Below, in pieces: positions 2,363 through 14,854 of a stretch of 24,731 nt of DNA. Each line of letters begins with the position of its first letter. Position 1 is the stretch's first letter. The stretch covers positions 1-24,731 of the forward strand of contig JBIKWF010000062.1 in NCBI GenBank assembly GCA_044356455.1, written 5' to 3'. The position numbers were made by a program, and so were the translations under genes. The DNA comes from Bdellovibrionota bacterium (GTDB lineage Bacteria > Bdellovibrionota_C > UBA2361 > JBGSMV01). Below the pieces are notes generated by a model. That model searched no databases. It saw only the letters and a program-made list of their open reading frames with translations, and was not told the DNA's origin.

Positions 2363-2794
2363 CTATCCGACTCCATATGGCACCTTGTAGCCTTCAATTG
2401 CAGCGGCACGAGCTAGCCTTTGGTCGAAGGTAATAAAAGTATCTCCTGCCGGATTACCCATGCTTGCCACCAGGGCGGCTGCCAATTGGAGTGCGTCTGC
2501 CGCGCGAAGTGGATGCGTGGCTACCAAACGCGAGGCAAGTTCACGAAGGCTGCTTGATGGTTGGATCTCGTGCCAATTTGCCGAGAGCTCCTCGAGGAGT
2601 TCGAGGGACTGTTCCCGTGCTTGCAAGGTAAGGGCACCCTCTCGGAAACGTCGTCCTATGGCGGTGCGGCACTCAAGGAGAGTGGACCACCAGACCCATA
2701 GCTCGCCGTCCTCCTTTGCGATTTCCACCATCGAAGCAGTCTGGGCTTCCTCGATGATCAGGGGGAGAATCGCGGAGCTGTCCCAAAATTTCAT
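2363..2794 (-). CDS. vapC: VapC-family PIN-domain toxin
   Basis: MKFWDSSAILPL, LRAADALQLAAA, FITFDQRL are PIN acidic motifs; 4-bp overlap with the upstream antitoxin. Confidence 0.92.
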   Translation of the reverse strand: MKFWDSSAILPLIIEEAQTASMVEIAKEDGELWVWWSTLLECRTAIGRRFREGALTLQAREQSLELLEELSANWHEIQPSSSLRELASRLVATHPLRAADALQLAAALVASMGNPAGDTFITFDQRLARAAAIEGYKVPYGVG

Positions 2795-3099
2795 AATTCG
2801 CGATCTCTCTCTTCGATGGCTGCTTGAATTACACTCGCGGAAGATGAGGCGCGAGGACGTTCAAGTAGGGAGGTGAGAGAGTTGCGTTTTCTTCTCGAAA
2901 TCGCCCCGTCAGCTTCAAGTTGAGCGAGGCGTGTATCTACCGACTTGTTTTGGTTGCTGCTCTCATCGCCCCTAAAGAGAGCCACTACGCGTACGAATGG
3001 CCTCTTTCTATCAAAAATGATCACTTCTTCTCCGCGAGCTGCGCGAGCGAGAAGAGCACTTAGGTTGTCTTTAAACTGGGTAATTGTGACCTTCTTCAT
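2791..3099 (-). CDS. Phd/YefM-family antitoxin
   Basis: MKKVTITQFKDNLSALLARAARGEEVIIFDRKRPFVRV is a typical Phd N-terminus; directly upstream of the PIN toxin. Confidence 0.9.
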   Translation of the reverse strand: MKKVTITQFKDNLSALLARAARGEEVIIFDRKRPFVRVVALFRGDESSNQNKSVDTRLAQLEADGAISRRKRNSLTSLLERPRASSSASVIQAAIEERDREL

Positions 3100-3181: not shown

Positions 3182-3219
3182 GCTGTGTAATTTCAATGCA
3201 TTAATTGAGTGGAGCATTC

Positions 3220-3705
3220 ATGATTCACGAAGTTTCCGGAGATATTCTTCTTTCAAGTGCACAAGCAATTGCTCATGGAATTGCCCCAAATGATAATTTT
3301 GGCCAGGGGCTCGCCCTTAGTCTGCGTGAACAGTGGCCCGCTCTTTACAAGGATTTCCGTCACTTCTGTCAAACTCGTCATCCGGAGGCTGGCAGTATCT
3401 GGGTCTGGGCGGGAGTTGGCGGGAAAAGAGTAGTGAACCTAATGACTCAGGAAGGATCTTACGAGTCGCACGGAAAGCCAGGAAAGGCGTCGACCTCTCA
3501 CGTGAATCATGCCCTCAAAGAGCTGCATGCCTGGATTGAATCAGAGAAGATTACTTCCATTGCCTTGCCAAAGCTTGCGACGGGAGTGGGGGGACTTGAG
3601 TGGAATGATGTGTATCCGCTCATTAAGAAGCACCTCGGAAGCTCTTCTGCTCAGGTGTATCTCTACACCACGTTCCATAAGGGGCAGAAGGCGGTTGAGG
3701 CTTAG
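3220..3705 (+). CDS. Stand-alone macrodomain protein (TARG1/Poa1p/DarG-macro-like)
   Basis: MIHEVSGDILL, AIAHG, FGQGLA, SIALPKLATGVGGLEW; GGAG SD at 3211-3214 favours ATG 3220 over TTG 3205. Confidence 0.85.
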   Translation: MIHEVSGDILLSSAQAIAHGIAPNDNFGQGLALSLREQWPALYKDFRHFCQTRHPEAGSIWVWAGVGGKRVVNLMTQEGSYESHGKPGKASTSHVNHALKELHAWIESEKITSIALPKLATGVGGLEWNDVYPLIKKHLGSSSAQVYLYTTFHKGQKAVEA

Positions 3706-3825
3706 GGAATCTCTCAAAAAGCCTGCTCTGTGAACTCTGTGGTTGATTTAAATCGTTGAAAAACCACAGAGGGCACAGAGTTCACAGAGAGAAAAAATAA
3801 AATAGCGATGTTTTTCAGAGGTTCC
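3706..3825. mobile_element. MITE family B copy 1 (120 bp)
   Basis: TIR GGAATCTCTCAAAAA...TTTTTCAGAGGTTCC, flanked by TTAG and CTAG; internal ctctgtg/cacagag 9-bp-periodic palindrome; homologous to 9043-9172 and 14678-14806. Confidence 0.8.
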
Positions 3826-3830
3826 CTAGC

Positions 3831-5306: not shown

Positions 5307-5540
5307 GGTAGGGCGCGCCGTTCCGCCTCTGCCAGTAGGCGACGGCGCGACGCGCGCCCCGGCGTGCCGAAACAATTGCCGCAGGGCATCCATGGACGGT
5401 TGCTTTGCCGTAATCAGCGAAGGGGAAGTACAGGCTACGTGCCGGTATGAGAGATCTTTCGGCACGCTGAGGACAGCGCGTCCTACCTATTGGCGCGGCA
5501 TCTAGGTAGGGCGCCCTGTCCTCAGGGCGCCGCAAGATCT
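5307..5540. repeat. REP doublet array (family A), with a 35-bp insert in the first REP
   Basis: ggtagggcgcgccgt[insert 5322-5356]ccccggcgtgccg, linker, then an inverted pair at 5452-5540. Confidence 0.85.
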
Positions 5541-5625
5541 CTCTTGCCGACACCTGCTAGGTTTTTATCCGCCCCACAGATTACGCCATTGCTACAAACA
5601 TCACAGTTTGTGTTATATCCACCGA

Positions 5626-6321
5626 ATGATTCGTCTTGCTGATGTATTAAAAGATCTTGTTGATAAAAACCCGCTCCTGCAGTCAGGCCTTAGGCACCGG
5701 CTGCTTAATCTTACGCAGCTGAGCAAGTTTATTCGCCCCCAAATTGAGGCGCGTGCCAAGAAAGAGGCAAGCGAGGCGGCAATACTTATGGCGCTTTCTC
5801 GCCTTCAACAGTCCTTTGGTGAGATACCAAAATCTGAGGCAGAAAAAAAGTCAGGCGGCGTCTCGAGTGCTGATATTCACGTCGATAATATTTCGATTAA
5901 TGCTCAGCTCTGTGCCTTGAGCTTTCATAATTCTATAGAAGTGAATCGCGGGCTCAATTCTCTCTATAACCGCGTGCACCGCAAATCTGGATTCATCACC
6001 ATTACGCATGGGATGCAGGAGATTCGGGTTATCTTAGAAAGAGTCTCACTTGCGCTCGTGAAGGAGTGTGTCCCCGAGAAGCCGCTGATGAGCCATCAGC
6101 ATCTTGCTTCTTTAGGCGTGAGTTTTAAGAAAAATTACCTTGAGACCCCCGGATTTTTCTACCTCATGTTTCAGCAGCTCTATTTTCAGAACATCAATGT
6201 CGTGGAAATTGCCTCTACGGCGAATGAGCTTCTTATCTATGTACATGAAAACGACGTGCGTCTGGCGTTTGATACGCTCTATAATCGATTCTTGTTGGGG
6301 CAACGGGGGACTGCAAGCTAA
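5626..6321 (+). CDS. ACT-domain protein with N-terminal HTH-like region, putative amino-acid-sensing regulator
   Basis: N-terminal LLNLTQLSKFIRP...SEAAILMALSRL; C-terminal ETPGFFYLMFQQLYFQNINVVEIASTANELLIYV resembles aspartokinase-type ACT; no kinase domain. ATG 5626 preferred. Confidence 0.65.
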   Translation: MIRLADVLKDLVDKNPLLQSGLRHRLLNLTQLSKFIRPQIEARAKKEASEAAILMALSRLQQSFGEIPKSEAEKKSGGVSSADIHVDNISINAQLCALSFHNSIEVNRGLNSLYNRVHRKSGFITITHGMQEIRVILERVSLALVKECVPEKPLMSHQHLASLGVSFKKNYLETPGFFYLMFQQLYFQNINVVEIASTANELLIYVHENDVRLAFDTLYNRFLLGQRGTAS

Positions 6322-6334
6322 AGAATTGATGACA

Positions 6335-7516
6335 TTACGCTGCAACAAGAGTATTCGGCTCCGCTAGAAGCACACGCCCAGTGGCCTCCGCCACTCTGTC
6401 CAGATCCTCATAAGAAATCACCAAAGGAGGTAAGTAGCGTATCACCGTGGGGCCCGCAGGAATGGCCAAAACACCTTCATCGCTTAAGGCTTGAATATAA
6501 CTGGTAGATTTTTCTTTAAGCTGCAGCCCTACCATAAGTCCAAGGCGACGAATTTCTCGGACCTTGGGGGACTTAAGCGCAAGCAACTTCTCGGCGAAGT
6601 AGGCACCTTTCTTCTCGGCTGCTTCAGCAAGCTTTTCATCAAGCATAAAGGTAAGGGCAGCAAGCCCGGCTGCGCATGCCAAAGGACAGCCGCCAAAGGT
6701 AGTGCCGTGGGCGCCTACTTCTACTTTAATTTTGTCTGAGCAAAGCGTGGCTCCCATAGGGACTCCGCCTGCCATGGATTTTGCGAGGCACAAGATATCT
6801 GGCTCAAGACCAAAGTGCTCACAGGCGAACATTTTTCCCGTGCGGCAGAAGCCCGTCTGGATTTCATCAACAATAAAAAGCGCCCCGCGTTCGCGGCAAA
6901 GGTCTTGGGCCGCTTTAAAATATTCCTGCTCGCCTACGTAGACGCCGCCTTCACCCTGCACAATTTCGAGCATGACTCCGGCGGTGTGTTCATTGATGGC
7001 GCCTGAAAGTGCCTCAATACTTCCAAAGGGCACATGCACAAAGCCATCGACAAGGGGACCAAAACCATCGCGGTACTTTTGATTATGGGTAGCTGAAAGC
7101 GCACCGAGAGTTCTTCCGTGAAAACCTCTTACTGCGCAGATAAAGTTGGGTCTCCCTGTGCTCACTCGCGCAAATTTAATTGCCGCCTCAACGCTTTCTG
7201 CACCGGAGTTGCAAAGAAACACTTTGCTTAAGGGGGCAGGGGCGATGCTTATCAGCTTCTCCATGAGGCGAGAGCGCACGTCGTGCTGAAAAATGCCTGT
7301 GCAGGTGATGAGACGTGCAGCTTGTTCTTGAATAGCTTTCACGACGGCAGGATTGCAGTGCCCTACATTGACGGACCCTGCTCCTGCTGCGCAATCAATA
7401 TAACGCTTCCCTGTGTCATCCCACACATGCGCGCCAAGGCCACGCTCAAGGGTAAGGGCTCTTTTGGGAAAGAGGGGCAGCTCGTATCGATTCGAAAGTT
7501 CAGTGGCCTTATTCAT
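6335..7516 (-). CDS. lysJ: [LysW]-aminoadipate semialdehyde transaminase (class III PLP, LysJ/ArgD family)
   Basis: NSGAESVEAA, FHGRT, DEIQTG, LAKSMAGG, HGTTFGG; last gene of the lysW operon. Confidence 0.88.
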   Translation of the reverse strand: MNKATELSNRYELPLFPKRALTLERGLGAHVWDDTGKRYIDCAAGAGSVNVGHCNPAVVKAIQEQAARLITCTGIFQHDVRSRLMEKLISIAPAPLSKVFLCNSGAESVEAAIKFARVSTGRPNFICAVRGFHGRTLGALSATHNQKYRDGFGPLVDGFVHVPFGSIEALSGAINEHTAGVMLEIVQGEGGVYVGEQEYFKAAQDLCRERGALFIVDEIQTGFCRTGKMFACEHFGLEPDILCLAKSMAGGVPMGATLCSDKIKVEVGAHGTTFGGCPLACAAGLAALTFMLDEKLAEAAEKKGAYFAEKLLALKSPKVREIRRLGLMVGLQLKEKSTSYIQALSDEGVLAIPAGPTVIRYLPPLVISYEDLDRVAEATGRVLLAEPNTLVAA

Positions 7517-7528
7517 AAAGGGCGCCCA

Positions 7529-8332
7529 TTATTGAATAGTTGTGCCGCGTCCCGCCAATGCGTCCTCTATCGGGTGTGCTCCGCGGCCGTCCGCTAGTAT
7601 GACTCGGGGCGAGCCACTTTCAAAGAGCTTCCTGATGCCCATGATTTTTCTCCGCATGCGGCCTTGCACGCGCTCTTCCCAGCTTGGGAGGGTCTCTTTC
7701 TCGATGCGCGAGACGAGTGATTCTGGGTTTGCACGGTCGGAGAGGAGGCCGGGTGCTTCGATAAACTGAAGTATCGTAGAGGCATTGAGGGAACGGTGCA
7801 GGAGAGCCACGACATCGTCGTTGTCTGTATTAATCGCCCTGCCATCCGCATCAATAATAGGCACTGAGATTACGGGGGTGTATCCCGCCCCTAGAAGGAG
7901 CTGAAGGAGGCTCGTATTTACCGCTTTGGGCTTTCCGGAATTGTCCCTCACAATGAGGGTTTTCCCATTCTCTCGCACGCGAATCGCGCTATTTCGTTCG
8001 CCTTCAATGAGGCGGCCATCGATTCCTGAGAGGCCAAGTGCGTTAATGCCGTGGATTTGGCAGAGCTCTACGAGGCGCTTATTCCTAAGACCCGCGTAGG
8101 CCATCATCATCAGGTCAATCATCTCGTCATCTGAATGGGTGCTCGTTACCCCGCTCACTGAGGTAAGCGTGCGGAGGGGAATATTCAGGCGTTTGGCGAG
8201 GTCATCTCTTAGGGCGTTGGCGCCATGGACCAGAATCATAGGGCCGGCGCCTTTTTTCTGCTGCTCGGCGAGATCTGCAACTATTGCCGGGAGATTTATG
8301 GCGCTTCCGCCGCCAAGCTTTACTATCATCAT
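7529..8332 (-). CDS. lysZ: [LysW]-aminoadipate kinase (LysZ/ArgB family)
   Basis: IVKLGG, LVHGA, TSVSG, GLSGIDG, INTDND, GRMRRKI; lysW context. Confidence 0.9.
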   Translation of the reverse strand: MMIVKLGGGSAINLPAIVADLAEQQKKGAGPMILVHGANALRDDLAKRLNIPLRTLTSVSGVTSTHSDDEMIDLMMMAYAGLRNKRLVELCQIHGINALGLSGIDGRLIEGERNSAIRVRENGKTLIVRDNSGKPKAVNTSLLQLLLGAGYTPVISVPIIDADGRAINTDNDDVVALLHRSLNASTILQFIEAPGLLSDRANPESLVSRIEKETLPSWEERVQGRMRRKIMGIRKLFESGSPRVILADGRGAHPIEDALAGRGTTIQ

Positions 8333-8341
8333 AACGACTAC

Positions 8342-8974
8342 CTACATCCAAAATGCTTGATTTACGGGGGCTGGCTCCCAGCCCTGTTCCCCTTCAAAGG
8401 GCTGTGAGCACAAGACGCGAATGGGTCCATTTCGCACGTGCATTTGAAAATAGTCAGGCTTCTCATCGAACGCCGAATAGCAATAGGCACGGTGCTCGTT
8501 CGCAACGAGAAAGTTCATAGCTCGAATTCTCTTAGCCCGGGAGCGAATAGCGCGGGCGCCGGAGGAAATGGTTTCCATCCAATCGCCTTCATGCTGGGTT
8601 CTTAGGAAATTAAAAATCTTTTCTGCGCCAATTCGTCCTTCAGCTCGAATTCTTACTTCATGCAGTTCGCCGTTAAAGGCAAAAACAAGATTATCTGCCA
8701 GGAATGGCATGTTGTTTTCAACGCAGATTCCTTCATCGCGAAAGGCACTTCGTGCGTGAGCGATAAGGCAGGTGGTGGTTCCGAGATTCGGTAAGGCGTC
8801 CTCCCAAATTGGCTGGATGCTGTGGTGGCTTTTCCACTGAGCACCGTCCCACAAGGCCAAGCCCCAGCCGTGTCCCTGGTATTCGGGACTGTTTTTCGCC
8901 ACCTTTGCGAAGCGTTGGAGGAAGGGCTCTACCTCAAAGGGCTTTTCTGATTTGGCGTAAAGGAGTCGGCACAT
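8342..8974 (-). CDS. Class II glutamine amidotransferase / Ntn-hydrolase (EgtC/YafJ/Dug3-like)
   Basis: ATG 8974 gives MCRLL (Cys nucleophile at position 2); GHGWG, HARSA, NNMPF, FAFNG, CSQPF motifs; ends 9 bp before lysZ. Confidence 0.88.
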   Translation of the reverse strand: MCRLLYAKSEKPFEVEPFLQRFAKVAKNSPEYQGHGWGLALWDGAQWKSHHSIQPIWEDALPNLGTTTCLIAHARSAFRDEGICVENNMPFLADNLVFAFNGELHEVRIRAEGRIGAEKIFNFLRTQHEGDWMETISSGARAIRSRAKRIRAMNFLVANEHRAYCYSAFDEKPDYFQMHVRNGPIRVLCSQPFEGEQGWEPAPVNQAFWM

Positions 8975-9042
8975 AAACAATAGGTTAAGACCACCAGTAA
9001 TAACACAAAGATGAGGGGTATGGTCTTTGTGTGGTTCCCTAG

Positions 9043-9172
9043 GGAGCCTCTGAAAAAGATCGCTATTTTATTTTTTATCTCAGTGAACTCTGTGTCCTCT
9101 GTGGTTTTTTCAACAATTTAAATCAACCACAGAGGGCACAGAGTTCACAGAGCGGACTTTTTCAGAGATTCC
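9043..9172. mobile_element. MITE family B copy 2 (130 bp), inside the lys operon
   Basis: TIR GGAGCCTCTGAAAAA...TTTTTCAGAGATTCC with CTAG on both sides (9039-9042, 9173-9176); the right CTAG contains the lysY stop. Confidence 0.85.
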
Positions 9173-10216
9173 CTAGATTGGGTGTAGCCCTGAAAATTCC
9201 AAAGCGGTTGTTTCGGGCAGACCAAGCATCAGGTTCATTGCTTGCACAGCCTGTCCTGCGGCACCTTTCATGAGGTTGTCGATAGCGGAAATCACCACTA
9301 TGCGCCCAGTGTGCGGGTCTACTTCAAAACCCACATCACAATAATTGGTGCCCCAGAGAAGTTTAGGCTCCGGATAACGATAGTTACCTTGCCGGTCCTT
9401 CACTATCCGCACGAAGGGCTCTTTCCCATACACTTCTCGGTACATCTGCCAGAGTTCTTTCTCAGTTACCGGACGCGAGGGGAACACGCTTGCGGTTGCA
9501 AGCACTCCGCGCACCATATCGAGGGCAGTGAGCGAGAGATGCATGCTGTTCTCCGGAAGAGAAAGCTCTTGCAGTACCTCAGCCGTGTGCCGGTGGCCCG
9601 TAGGGGAGAAGGAGCGCACGGAATGACTTCTCTCGGGATGGTGAGAGCTCTCGCTTGAGACGCGGCCTCCCTCGCTCGAGCCGGCCTTAATGTCCACGAT
9701 GGCGGGCTGGGCACCAATTAGGCCAAATTTACTAAGAGGATAGAGCCCAAGAATCGTCGCCGTCGCGTTGCATCCTGCACTTGAAATTCGGGTAGAGCTC
9801 CGCATCTCTTCACGGTGGAGTTCAGGAATCCCGTAGACAAAGTCGATTAGCCGCTGGGGAAGGGGATGCTCATACCCGTACCAGCGCTGATAGGCGCTTG
9901 GAGTATTCAATCTAAAGTCGGCACTGAGGTCGATAAGCCGCGGAGCGAGACCTTCGAGGGTGTTTATGTGCTTGGCACTCTCGCCATGAGGCAAACAGCA
10001 AAAGAGCACATCAACGCTGCCAAGTTCTGCCATCTTCTTAAATGAGAGCTCGGAGCGTTTGCGAAGATGAGGGTGAGCGCGGTGGATAAACTGGCCGGCA
10101 AGGCGCTCTGAGCTTACCTCGGCGACCTCTACGCCTGGGTGCGAGAGAAGAAGCCTCAGAAGCTCTCCTCCCGTGTACCCCGAGGCTCCTACAATACCAA
10201 CACGAACCTGGCTCAT
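9173..10216 (-). CDS. lysY: [LysW]-aminoadipyl-phosphate reductase (LysY/ArgC family)
   Basis: [54 protein letters not shown] overlap with lysX. Confidence 0.92.
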
Positions 10217-11070
10217 ACTGCTCTACTTCTTGCGACCTTTAGGACGTAGTCCACCATGGCTCCTGGAATATTAACGCCAGTGGTGGTCACGCTGTTCTTA
10301 AACTCCATCGTGTGATTGACCTCGTTGACGATAATTCCATCTTTCGTCTCAAAGAGGTCAATCGCCACCATCCCGCCGCCTACCGCTTTTGCTGCGCGCA
10401 CGGAAAGTTCACCAATTTCTGCGGTGACCGGACAGTTGCTTGCAACTCCGCCTCGCGCCGTATTGGTGATCCAGTGGTCTGAGGTGCGGTAGATTGCGGC
10501 GATACATTCGTCGCCTACCACAAAACTTCGAATATCCCGGCCGTGCTTTTCGACGTAGCGCTGCAGATAGAAAATGGAATGATGGTAGCTTCCAAGAACC
10601 TCTTTGTGTTCAAGCAGCGCCTCGGCAGCATCGCGATCGTTGATTTTTGCGAGCAGCCTGCCCCATGAACCAACTGCTGGTTTCATTACCACCGGGTAAC
10701 CCATCTCTTCTATCGTCGCGAGCGCTGATTCCGCCGTAAAGGCGACTCGCACCTCAGGTTGCGGAACTCCGGCGTTTTGCAGAGCGATAGAGGTAAGTAA
10801 CTTATCTCCGCAGGTAGTCGCGATGGCAGAGCTGTTCACACAAGCCACGCCACCCGCTTCAAAAAGCTGAAGTGCCGTGAGTCCTCGCGAGTGGGTGATG
10901 GAGCGCTCAAGCACTGCGTCAACCCCAAAGCCGCGGCTTCCAAGTTTAAAGGTCAAAACTCGGTCGTCAATCATCACGGTGGACACGTTGGGACGGGACT
11001 CGAGTTCATCGAGCAACATCTTTTCATCTTTGCGGATGAGGGTGTGCAAAAACCCAATGCGAGTGTTCAT
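10213..11070 (-). CDS. lysX: Alpha-aminoadipate--LysW ligase (RimK-family ATP-grasp)
   Basis: [37 protein letters not shown] match the LysX type rather than ArgX; ATG 11070 lies 2 bp after the lysW stop. Confidence 0.93.
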
Positions 11071-11072
11071 GC

Positions 11073-11237
11073 TTATTCTCCCCAATCCTCGCCCTCTTCA
11101 GGGGCTTCGGCGAGAAGTACGGGGGCAAGACCAGCTACTTCAAGGTCTGCGCCGCAGTCTCCGCATTGAACAAGTTCACCTTTAACGGTATCGGCCGCGA
11201 GTTTCACTCCGGCGCTGCACACTGGACAATCTCCCAT
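11073..11237 (-). CDS. lysW: Amino-group carrier protein LysW (54 aa; not in ORF track)
   Basis: Manual translation [54 protein letters not shown]: two CxxC motifs, C-terminal EDWGE, GGAGG SD at 11246-11242. Confidence 0.96.
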
Positions 11238-11392
11238 ACATCCTCCGAACAAACATGGTTCGGTAGAGTTGTAGGGGGAATAGAGCTTGGCGCCAAGTTT
11301 TAGGTTGCCGGCAACAAAGTCTATCAGAAAGTGTTAGGAATATAACGAGGCCGGTTTTGGGCGACTGCTGCTGGTAGGGGTTCAATATGTCG

Positions 11393-11642
11393 CCGCGTGC
11401 CAGGGCGGAAGATCTTGCGGCACCGCGAGGACGCGGCGCCCTACCAAGATGCGACGCCTATGGGTAGGGCGCGCCGTTCCGCCTCTGCCAGTAGGCGACG
11501 GCGCGACGCGCGCCCCGGCGTGCCGAATCAAATGCCGTGGGTTAGGCAGGGGGTGAGGGTCTCGTAATTATTAAGCTGGCAAAAATGTGCCACGTGCCAG
11601 GACGAAAGATCTTGCGGCACCGCGGGGACGCGGCGCCCTACC
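11393..11642. repeat. REP doublet array (family A), with a 35-bp insert
   Basis: Units start at agatc 11410 and 11607; insert at 11478-11512 is identical to 5322-5356. Confidence 0.85.
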
Positions 11643-11668
11643 TTGGACGACAATTAAGGGGAGTATTC

Positions 11669-12454
11669 CTACTGCTTGACTAAGTCGAGCGCCTTAGGCG
11701 AGACGTCGCCGATAGCATCCAGGGCAGTTGCTGGATTGCTGAAAATCTTCGTCTCCGCAGCCCCTGCGAGCTTCGCCGCGGCGTCAACATCACGCACCGA
11801 GGCCTTGGACGCTTCGGTATTTTGCTGCGCAATTTCATAGGAGAGCACTGCGCCCTTAAGCGTCTCGTTACTCTGCTGCATTGCTTTGCGCATATCATCG
11901 ATACGTGCGCGGGCTTTGGCTACGTTTGTGATCGTCTGGATGATGGTCTCTTTTCTCGAGAACGAAATCGGTTGAAGTCCATCCTTCTTACCGCGCTCTT
12001 CGGGAATCAGAACGTCCAAAGTTTTTCCGATGGTTTCTTCGACTTGCTTTCGCACCTGGTCATCAGGAATTGGAGCGCTTGCAGCCGAGGAAACTTCCCT
12101 TGCAGTTCGCTTAATCTCATCAACCATTTGATTGGCTTCTGACTCAAGTGCCTGCTTGCGCTGCGGAGACACTTCGCCTTGGGCCTGCTCGATGAAGCCG
12201 TCAATGCTGCTAAGATAATTGGCAATCGAAGTAGTCGCGTCGGATGCGACGTTAAGAGAAGAAATAGCCTCGTTCAGATTCTTTCTAAGGTCAGCAGAGA
12301 CTGAGGCAGGGATATTGTTTGCTCCCTTTAATTGTACCTCGGGCTTAGGGACAGAGTTAGTTGCAGCAGTGCCTTTCGCGCGCGTCGCTTGCTGTAGGGG
12401 GATGGGCGAGAGTGCCCCAATAACGACGCGTTTACCTACGTCTTTGACATCCAT
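11669..12454 (-). CDS. Divergent flagellin-like protein lacking the canonical N-terminal D0 segment
   Basis: RKNLNEAISSLNVASDA...RKQALESEANQMVDEIKR resembles flagellin ND1; QNTEASKASVRDVDAA...ALDLVK resembles the flagellin C-terminus (ENLxAAxSRIRDVDxA). Confidence 0.65.
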   Translation of the reverse strand: MDVKDVGKRVVIGALSPIPLQQATRAKGTAATNSVPKPEVQLKGANNIPASVSADLRKNLNEAISSLNVASDATTSIANYLSSIDGFIEQAQGEVSPQRKQALESEANQMVDEIKRTAREVSSAASAPIPDDQVRKQVEETIGKTLDVLIPEERGKKDGLQPISFSRKETIIQTITNVAKARARIDDMRKAMQQSNETLKGAVLSYEIAQQNTEASKASVRDVDAAAKLAGAAETKIFSNPATALDAIGDVSPKALDLVKQ

Positions 12455-12963: not shown

Positions 12964-13104
12964 AGTTCCTAAAGACTGCCTTTATTCTGTCCGGCACTCA
13001 AATATTTTTGATTTTGAATGTCCTGCAGCGCAGCTGGTTTATGCAAAATCAATAAGTTAAGGCGCACCAGGAAATGCTCCCCGATCAATGCCGGGCGGGT
13101 TCAA

Positions 13105-13486
13105 AGATCCTGCGGCACCGCAGGGACGCGGCGCCCTACCAAGATGCGACGCCTATGGGTAGGGCGCGCCGAATCAAATGCCGCGGGGCTGGCAGGCAGC
13201 GGGGATTTCGCGATTCGCAAGGGGACAAAAATATGCCGCGTGCCAAGGCGAAAGATCTTTCGGCACCGCAGGGACGCGGCGCCCTACCAAGATGCTGCGC
13301 CTATGGGTAGGGCGCGCCGTCCCCGGCGTGCCGCAACAAATGCTGCGGGGCATCCACGGACCGATTCCTTTGCGGAGTCGTTTCGGTGAGCAAATACGAA
13401 AGATTTGCCAGGACGAGAGATCTTTCGGCACCGCAGGGCTTGTCGCGACGTCGCCTACTGGCAGAGGCGGAACGCGGCGCCCTACC
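13105..13486. repeat. REP doublet tandem array (family A), three units
   Basis: Units start at 13105, 13253 and 13418; unit 1 has a 14-bp deletion in its second REP; unit 3 has a 33-bp insert (13439-13471). Confidence 0.88.
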
Positions 13487-14673: not shown

Positions 14674-14677
14674 CTAG

Positions 14678-14806
14678 GGAACCTCTGAGAAACCTCGATA
14701 TTTTATTTTTTTCTCTCCGTGATCTCTGTGTGCTCTGTGGTTTTCAACAATTTAAATCAACCACAGAGGGCACAGAGTCCACAGAGCAGACTTTTTCAGA
14801 TCTTCC
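14678..14806. mobile_element. MITE family B copy 3 (129 bp)
   Basis: TIR GGAACCTCTGAGAAA...TTTTTCAGATCTTCC, flanked by CTAG and ATAG; 4 bp from the M48 start codon. Confidence 0.8.
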
Positions 14807-14854
14807 ATAGAGAATTTTCTAAAAAATCCTCCTTCGTGGTCCCTCAAGTGACCT

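Follow-up and report, generated by a model that had tools for sequence, protein, structure and literature searches.

Which enzyme completes a LysW-dependent lysine pathway when the gene known for its last step is missing? The question is raised by a contig of 24,731 nucleotides (nt), JBIKWF010000062.1, of a Bdellovibrionota bacterium (assembly GCA_044356455.1). The whole contig (C4 in our numbering), referred to below as the window, was analysed together with the rest of the genome (G000), which comprises 4.70 Mb in 216 contigs and is 93% complete. In the LysW pathway, LysX loads the substrate onto the γ-carboxyl group of the terminal Glu of the amino-group carrier protein (AmCP) LysW. Release of the product is the task of LysK, an M20 metallopeptidase of the ArgE/DapE family which acts as [LysW]-lysine/ornithine hydrolase in Thermus, Sulfolobus and Thermococcus. 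The window carries six consecutive genes on the minus strand in the order lysW-lysX-lysY-Ntn-lysZ-lysJ, where the gene denoted Ntn encodes a protein of 210 amino acids which begins with MCRLL and resembles the N-terminal nucleophile (Ntn) hydrolases. Sequence comparisons and structural models indicate that this protein is most probably an amidohydrolase which has taken over the last step of the pathway from the M20-type LysK. The genes of the operon are as follows.

11073–11237, minus strand: lysW, amino-group carrier protein, 54 amino acids from ATG (TIGR01206, 57.9 bits, cut-off 53.2; PF21344, 2.3e-16)
10213–11085, minus strand: lysX, ATP-grasp ligase (TIGR02144, 355.8 bits, cut-off 275.6)
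9173–10216, minus strand: lysY, [LysW]-aminoadipyl-phosphate reductase of the ArgC family (TIGR01850, 387.2 bits)
8342–8974, minus strand: Ntn gene, putative stand-alone Cys-Ntn hydrolase, similar to class II glutamine amidotransferases (GATase) and with an EgtC-like fold, 210 amino acids (invariant residues, AlphaFold model, Foldseek, synteny)
7529–8332, minus strand: lysZ, [LysW]-aminoadipate kinase (NF010659, 255.9 bits, cut-off 223)
6335–7516, minus strand: lysJ, [LysW]-aminoadipate semialdehyde aminotransferase, class III (PF00202, 3.4e-113; TIGR00707, 418.2 bits, cut-off 410)

All six genes were found in the order and on the strand described in an earlier, sequence-only reading of this DNA. 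Its description of the operon as tightly packed holds for four of the intergenic gaps, but not for the spacer between lysY and the Ntn gene (from lysW to lysJ, the gaps are −13, −4, 198, 9 and 12 nt). An alternative, longer frame of lysW starting with TTG reaches position 11252. LysW, LysX and LysZ, the markers of the Thermus-type LysW/AmCP pathway, all score over their equivalog cut-offs; LysJ scores 451 bits with the LysJ_Th_th model NF042418, which is under the cut-off of 700.

No lysK was found in this genome by a six-frame search, the best TIGR01902 match reaching 28.9 bits (cut-off 163.1; genome 93% complete). The window also holds no M20 peptidase, as had been stated from its sequence: a six-frame search of the whole genome with PF01546 returned five genes, and none of them lies on this contig. 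The same was seen in other carriers of the Ntn gene. TIGR01902 exceeded its cut-off in none of the 50 Ntn-carrying genomes searched (the best match had 101 bits). No LysK match was obtained in any of 80 loci anchored on the Ntn gene and, reciprocally, no Ntn match in any of 80 LysK-anchored metagenome loci.

Relatives of the Ntn protein are encoded in at least 511 genomes, one genome per species having been scanned. The 80 loci compared here are the best matches that were kept, i.e. the closest relatives of the query and not a random sample. They span Calditrichota, Ignavibacteria/Melioribacter, Gammaproteobacteria, Acidobacteriota, Planctomycetota, KSB1 and other lineages. The Ntn gene lies no more than 400 nt from a gene of the LysW pathway in 79 of these 80 loci, and the linkage of the subfamily to lysW, which had been predicted, was thus confirmed. 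In the sole unlinked locus (L041), the contig ends 458 nt upstream. The order lysY-Ntn-lysZ is found in 63 of the 80 loci; this number may be one too low, since L049 was scored as having no lysZ downstream despite a 40%-identical LysZ right after the Ntn gene. These counts rest on tblastn matches; greedy picking of open reading frames (ORFs) gave spurious antisense frames in GC-rich loci. No second conserved hydrolase was seen in the Ntn-type clusters. Of the 59 loci which hold both lysW and lysX, 38 have a homocitrate-synthase-like gene (TIGR02146, about 343 bits, cut-off 413.55) between the two, and those clusters are therefore tied to the aminoadipate route.

If the Ntn enzyme takes the place of LysK, the two genes should exclude each other, and this was observed in three lineages. 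Among 124 genomes of the window's own phylum, nine were LysX-positive over the cut-off; three of them carry only the Ntn gene (G000, G117 and G163) and six only lysK, with LysK over the cut-off and its gene sharing a contig with lysX. In G117 and G163, nothing matched LysK at E ≤ 1e-10. Both types occur within one family (f20), in which G163 carries the Ntn gene and G162, G166 and G167 carry lysK. The gene orders of the two types in this phylum are lysW-X-Y-Ntn-Z-J and lysW-X-Y-Z-J-K, respectively. In the class of the Melioribacter isolate G029 (151 genomes sampled), the identical 10 genomes hold the Ntn gene and LysX, which means that the Ntn gene is present in 10 of 10 LysX-positive and in none of the 141 other genomes; LysK was found in none of the 151. 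In the sample of 151 genomes from the phylum of G015, LysX was matched at E ≤ 1e-60 in 16; the match is over the cut-off in 15 and has 260 bits in the remaining one, G454. Eleven of the 16 possess only the Ntn gene and five only lysK, all five LysK being over the cut-off, with no overlap. Taken over the three lineages, the 35 LysX-positive genomes fall into 24 with the Ntn gene only and 11 with lysK only, none having both or neither. The mutual exclusion predicted in the sequence-only reading is therefore complete in this sample.

Three of the 11 Ntn genes in the G015 phylum belong to a divergent branch which scores 140–165 bits with the profile (G365, contig C8, 12442–13062; G385, contig C14, 29593–30213; G467, contig C168, 87–704). 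In G365 and G385, the divergent gene and lysX share a contig and are about 4–5 kb apart, so that the former is roughly in the place of lysK in LysK-type clusters. In G467, it is found on a contig other than that of lysX.

The Ntn protein is matched by the established family models only below their thresholds: Pfam GATase_4 gives 21.1 bits (gathering threshold 23), GATase_6 19.2 bits (27) and the EgtC model TIGR03442 34.9 bits (cut-off 218.65). No M20 match was obtained in Pfam and NCBIfam searches. There are 2888 homologues of similar length (about 211 amino acids), labelled in the databases as 'glutamine amidotransferase' and in one case as 'gamma-glutamyl-hercynylcysteine sulfoxide hydrolase'. 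The residues C2, R3, H73, R75, N101, G102, G116 and E118 are invariant in 78 aligned sequences, and the Cys directly follows the initiator Met, as expected for a class II Ntn nucleophile. The AlphaFold 2 model (predicted local distance difference test, pLDDT, 90.9; predicted template modelling score, pTM, 0.90) and the Foldseek search agree in a four-layer αββα Ntn fold. The best matches in the Protein Data Bank (PDB) are all chains of EgtC (4zfj, 4zfk and 4zfl), with E 1e-12, a template modelling (TM) score of 0.81 and 18% identity. They are followed by 1te5, PurF, 3mdn and GlmS, all five kinds having a probability of 1.00. A kinship to EgtC, which cleaves γ-glutamyl amides, had been proposed from sequence alone, and the nearest fold is indeed that of EgtC.

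In profile alignments, R75 and N101-G102 align with the Arg and Asn-Gly of 3mdn and EgtC. The local profile alignment by hhalign with the EgtC-like protein of G035 (probability 96.4) gave the same Arg and Asn-Gly pairing and placed 'GRIGAEKIF' of the Ntn protein opposite 'GATDSELIF'. The global mode of hhalign produced meaningless alignments with the genome's own GlmS and AsnB, and the local profile alignment was used instead. In the Ntn family, the invariant Gly116 takes the place of the Asp of the [ST]-D-[ST]-E motif while E118 is kept, the motif reading I-G-A-E; the Asp is kept in the GlmS (TDTE) and AsnB (SDTE) of the same genome. In the structures of PurF and GlmS, the Arg holds the α-carboxylate of the substrate, Asn-Gly forms the oxyanion hole and the motif Asp binds the free α-amino group of glutamine. 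Because of this role of the Asp, its change to Gly116 appears to fit a glutamyl residue whose α-amino group is engaged in a peptide bond, as in the C-terminal Glu of LysW. A true EgtC was also sought in 24 Ntn-carrying genomes; the single match at E ≤ 1e-30 had 189 bits and was below the cut-off.

The window LysW consists of a zinc ribbon and an acidic tail with the C-terminus EDWGE. The complex of Ntn residues 2–210 (78-row alignment) with LysW (58-row alignment) was modelled in three runs. The median interaction prediction score from aligned errors (ipSAE) was 0.67 (runs 0.67, 0.69 and 0.58), whereas the best control reached 0.01. Of 157 solved complexes, 116 attain the ipSAE mark, as do 2 of 215 mismatched pairs; these counts are only a rough guide here, custom alignments having been used. 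The runs had at least 70% of contacts in common and the partner pLDDT was at least 82. In the modelled interface, Ntn residues 2, 75–78, 100–110 and 115–120 meet LysW residues 45–54, and the acidic C-terminal tail of LysW is modelled in the active site at Cys2.

The carriers themselves differ between the two types of cluster. Among the 58 LysW proteins with readable ORFs in Ntn-anchored loci, 40 end with EDWGE and 18 with EDWGQ. The latter occur in loci with at least five phylum-level labels (Gammaproteobacteria, Acidobacteriota, Planctomycetota, Ignavibacteria/Bacteroidota and Calditrichota). None of the 24 LysW proteins encoded beside LysK (19 metagenome loci and five clusters of the own phylum) ends in Gln, all of them having Glu (Fisher p = 0.001, uncorrected for relatedness). 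Considering how LysX loads its substrate, a Gln-ended LysW would have to be deamidated beforehand, and the Ntn enzyme probably also deamidates the new Gln-ended carriers. Among the LysW proteins compared, Gln-ended carriers occur only beside the Ntn gene, which would be explained if the same chemistry both deamidates the carrier and releases the product. The window LysW ends in Glu and therefore only the release reaction would be needed here.

The catalytic steps and the substrate which we infer for the Ntn enzyme are the following. Met1 would be removed, as in other members of the family, exposing Cys2 as the nucleophile, and the acidic tail of LysW (EDWG-E) would dock in the active-site cleft as in the model. 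By alignment with class II amidotransferases, Arg75 would hold the free α-carboxylate of the terminal Glu and Asn101/Gly102 would form the oxyanion hole, Gly116 in place of Asp leaving room for the Gly53-Glu54 peptide bond. Cys2 would attack the γ-carbonyl of the isopeptide, upon which lysine (ornithine in some hosts) would leave, and hydrolysis of the thioester would regenerate LysW-Glu. With ammonia as the leaving group, the same chemistry would convert Gln-ended LysW to the active Glu form.

The proposed enzyme thus shares with LysK the reaction, i.e. hydrolysis of the C-terminal γ-glutamyl isopeptide of LysW, as well as the pathway and the operon. In contrast, the two proteins are non-homologous, with an Ntn fold and a Cys nucleophile here and a two-metal M20 fold in LysK; the Ntn gene is located between lysY and lysZ whereas lysK follows lysJ, and carriers ending in Gln are found beside the Ntn gene only. 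The likeness to EgtC, the γ-glutamyl-hercynylcysteine sulfoxide hydrolase of the ergothioneine pathway, extends from the fold and the aligned Arg and Asn-Gly to the character of a stand-alone Cys-Ntn enzyme cleaving a γ-glutamyl amide without an acceptor domain, as we propose for the Ntn protein. The two differ in sequence (18% identity and a TIGR03442 score far below the cut-off), in the change of the motif Asp to Gly116, in context, the Ntn gene being a neighbour of lysY and lysZ with no egt genes, and in the substrate, which is a small molecule for EgtC and would be a protein C-terminus here. The glutaminase domains of PurF, GlmS and AsnB, as well as 3mdn and 1te5, resemble the Ntn protein in fold, N-terminal Cys, Arg and Asn-Gly oxyanion hole, but the latter has no synthase domain or partner, falls short of the GATase_4 threshold and carries the I-G-A-E motif.

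The product of the operon is suggested by LysX. The signatures F-I-T-NS, I-Y-V-GF and Y-I-T-NA are listed for aminoadipate-specific LysX, for ArgX and for bifunctional enzymes, respectively (PMC12998189, Table 1). The window LysX reads F-I-T-NS in a gap-free alignment to Thermus LysX 1uc8 (positions 182, 192, 203 and 258–259), which points to aminoadipate as the substrate and lysine as the product. Arginine or ornithine as the principal product of the LysW cluster was rejected on account of this aminoadipate-type LysX and of a separate N-acetyl arginine cluster on contig C169, which comprises argG, argC, the gene for N-acetylornithine carbamoyltransferase (NF003384, 394 bits, cut-off 288), argB and argH. 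The argC of C169 is a second, canonical one. Ornithine is a possible product in other hosts, for example in the two gammaproteobacteria described below, which have lysA and no homocitrate-synthase-like gene.

Some features of these and related clusters were noted in passing. The C169 arginine cluster (L101, 8121–14380) has N-acetylornithine carbamoyltransferase in place of ArgF, contains no argJ and includes two unannotated ORFs of 240 and 354 amino acids between argG and argC. An Ntn-type cluster of the same phylum (L092 of G163, 8775–10486) carries tandem LysX paralogues with 67% and 56% identity to the window LysX, which may be a LysX/ArgX pair; L019 likewise has two LysX. In a gammaproteobacterial Ntn-type cluster (L035, 2739–5877 and 9464–11172), genes of a tripartite ATP-independent periplasmic (TRAP) transporter (DctPQM) immediately precede lysW, and lysZ and lysJ are separated by inserted aconitase X genes.

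Several observations weigh against the assignment of the release step to the Ntn enzyme. The first concerns the supply of aminoadipate. The upstream half of the pathway (homocitrate synthase, homoaconitase and homoisocitrate dehydrogenase) was not found in the genome at its 93% completeness. The only TIGR02146 match in the homocitrate synthase/LeuA family is 3-hydroxy-3-methylglutaryl-CoA lyase with 54.5 bits, and tblastn with the homocitrate-synthase-like protein of Melioribacter gave nothing at E ≤ 1e-5. When the ORFs of the Melioribacter ilv/leu operon, whose roles were assigned from size and order only, were compared with the genome by tblastn at E ≤ 1e-10, only the 431-amino-acid ORF of that operon gave a match, with 24% identity. 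No lysA scored over the cut-off in the genome either (best match 141 bits). The homocitrate-synthase-like gene and lysA are absent also from the congener G117 (91% complete) and from G163 (92%), and two complete gammaproteobacterial chromosomes with the Ntn cluster have lysA and no homocitrate-synthase-like gene. The name 'lysine operon' given in the sequence-only reading is thus supported by the LysX signature, but not by the upstream half of the pathway. Aminoadipate has no visible source in this genome. It could come from uptake or salvage, from an unknown route or from genes in the missing 7% of the assembly. This upstream gap has no bearing on the release step itself.

The second observation concerns ancestry. 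In a tree of LysZ (71 Ntn-type and 33 LysK-type sequences, rooted on the genome's ArgB), 70 of the 71 Ntn-type proteins, including that of the window, form one clade with a support of 0.98, the LysZ of L049 being the sole one outside it. Since the Ntn-type LysZ proteins are nearly one clade, the replacement probably took place once or a few times and was followed by horizontal spread of the whole operon. The LysX, LysY, LysZ and LysJ of the window are 50–75% identical to those of Ntn-type clusters from other phyla and 38–61% identical to those of LysK-type clusters of the own phylum. The exclusion pattern is real but counts few events; it may rest on very few replacements, and the Fisher values overstate independence. 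Moreover, a strong hairpin in the 198-nt spacer could uncouple transcription of Ntn-lysZ-lysJ from that of lysW-X-Y. The distance between the Ntn gene and lysY does not exceed 400 nt in 63 of the 80 related loci and is typically 5–150 nt.

Finally, four further M20 genes and one M42 gene are present in the genome. The five PF01546 genes encode two dipeptidase-like proteins, a distant ArgE/DapE-like protein (478 amino acids, 118 bits against 217.6), a glutamate-carboxypeptidase-like hydrolase and an M42 aminopeptidase. In 44 of the 50 Ntn-carrying genomes, TIGR01902 gives matches below its cut-off, which reach up to 101 bits, and an unrecognised M20 enzyme could perform the release. The Ntn enzyme would then only service the carrier, by deamidating Gln or by stripping mis-loaded amino acids, and an unrecognised hydrolase such as a non-LysK M20 would release the product; the 18 of 58 Ntn-linked carriers with a terminal Gln would agree with such a role. 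We consider this division of labour improbable. The gene is retained although 40 of the 58 carriers, that of the window included, already end in Glu. At E ≤ 1e-5, TIGR01902 matches nothing in six of the 50 genomes (the Rosettibacter isolate G012 is one of these), and its score in the Melioribacter isolate G029 is only 28 bits. The clusters offer no second conserved hydrolase for the task, and the exclusion of LysK extends to all 35 LysX-positive genomes.

Even less credible is that the Ntn enzyme, similarly to EgtC or a glutaminase, acts on a small γ-glutamyl compound or on free glutamine and that its place in the operon reflects only co-regulation. EgtC, the nearest fold, is a small-molecule enzyme, and the Ntn protein weakly resembles EgtC, as well as uncharacterised stand-alone GATase-II proteins, in sequence. 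Nevertheless, the Asp which would bind the α-amino group of such a substrate is an invariant Gly in this family, the modelled LysW complex passes its controls with the tail on Cys2, and in the class of G029 the gene occurs in all 10 LysX-positive genomes and in none of the 141 others. The least likely explanation, a true glutamine amidotransferase subunit handing ammonia to a pathway enzyme, agrees with the label 'class II glutamine amidotransferase' borne by homologues, but hardly with a stand-alone protein of 210 amino acids without a synthase domain, with GATase_4 below gathering and the motif Asp lost, in a pathway in which no step needs ammonia and LysJ is there for amination. Replacement of LysK by a non-orthologous enzyme with a Cys nucleophile, as put forward in the sequence-only reading, thus accords best with the absence of LysK, the linkage, the exclusion and the EgtC-like fold. 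That reading had not anticipated the Gln-ended carriers, the change of the motif Asp to Gly or the modelled docking of the LysW tail.

A wider picture, which goes beyond the replacement of LysK and which we offer tentatively as somewhat less than an even chance, is that the Ntn enzyme serves two purposes, maturing Gln-ended LysW and releasing the product in each cycle. This cysteine-based enzyme, which would need no metal, may have displaced LysK a single time and then travelled with the operon into many phyla. Hosts without homocitrate synthase, leu/ilv and lysA might use the module for salvage, converting external aminoadipate to lysine.

Two more features adjoin or interrupt the operon.

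5608–6321, plus strand: ORF237, unannotated, 237 amino acids with an ACT-like C-terminus (weak ACT_9 match, E 0.009; recurrent neighbour of Ntn-type clusters)
9030–9175, no strand assigned: copy of a palindromic repeat in the spacer between lysY and the Ntn gene (folding energy; blastn copies genome-wide)

The 206 nt around the spacer palindrome (8975–9180) have a folding energy of −86.9 kcal/mol (z = −11.5). The palindromic element of 146 nt gave 543 blastn high-scoring segment pairs (HSPs) genome-wide, with further copies in the window at 3703–3829 and 14674–14809. A second family of intergenic repeats, which is GC-rich, is present in the window at 42–130, 5307–5522, 11392–11677 and 13087–13379. 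Two direct repeats of 75 nt (5307–5381 and 11463–11537, 97% identical) flank ORF237 together with the whole operon. They were considered as the borders of a mobile segment, which was rejected as copies are scattered over the genome (64 HSPs on 35 contigs).

Relatives of ORF237 adjoin lysW in seven of the 80 Ntn-anchored loci according to tblastn (L019, L042, L047, L048, L059, L072 and L086), five of the seven being acidobacterial. A distant paralogue of ORF237 (ACT_7/DUF7523) is located in the arginine cluster of the genome, with 33% identity over 51 residues. ORF237 may be an amino-acid-sensing regulator. Elsewhere in the window, a binding protein of a branched-chain amino-acid ATP-binding cassette (ABC) transporter is encoded at 272–1402. 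Positions 2363–3099 and 3205–3705 hold a pair of small, overlapping and unannotated genes encoding 143 and 102 amino acids, possibly a toxin-antitoxin pair, and beside it the gene of a stand-alone macro-domain protein similar to the DarG N-terminus (82 bits, cut-off 250), with no DarT noted.

The LysW/AmCP pathway is well established; what is new is the non-homologous Ntn hydrolase as its proposed last enzyme. No description of an Ntn-type LysW hydrolase was found in the literature searched, which did not cover subscription papers, in keeping with the earlier statement that no enzyme of this kind was known to be characterised. A Thermus paper from 2025, in its accessible part, still names LysK as the hydrolase, and the accessible portions of GapMind 2026 and its six supplement files mention only a diverged M20 LysK of Nitrosopumilus. 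If our assignment is true, it would fill the apparent gap left by the absence of lysK from the lysine pathway in hundreds of bacterial species, among which are cultured Melioribacter, and would correct the labels 'glutamine amidotransferase' and 'EgtC' which Ntn genes bear. It would also show clearly that an enzyme of a carrier-protein pathway can be replaced by a non-homologous one, here an Ntn hydrolase that takes a protein C-terminus as its substrate, and would explain why a carrier whose gene specifies a terminal Gln is able to function.

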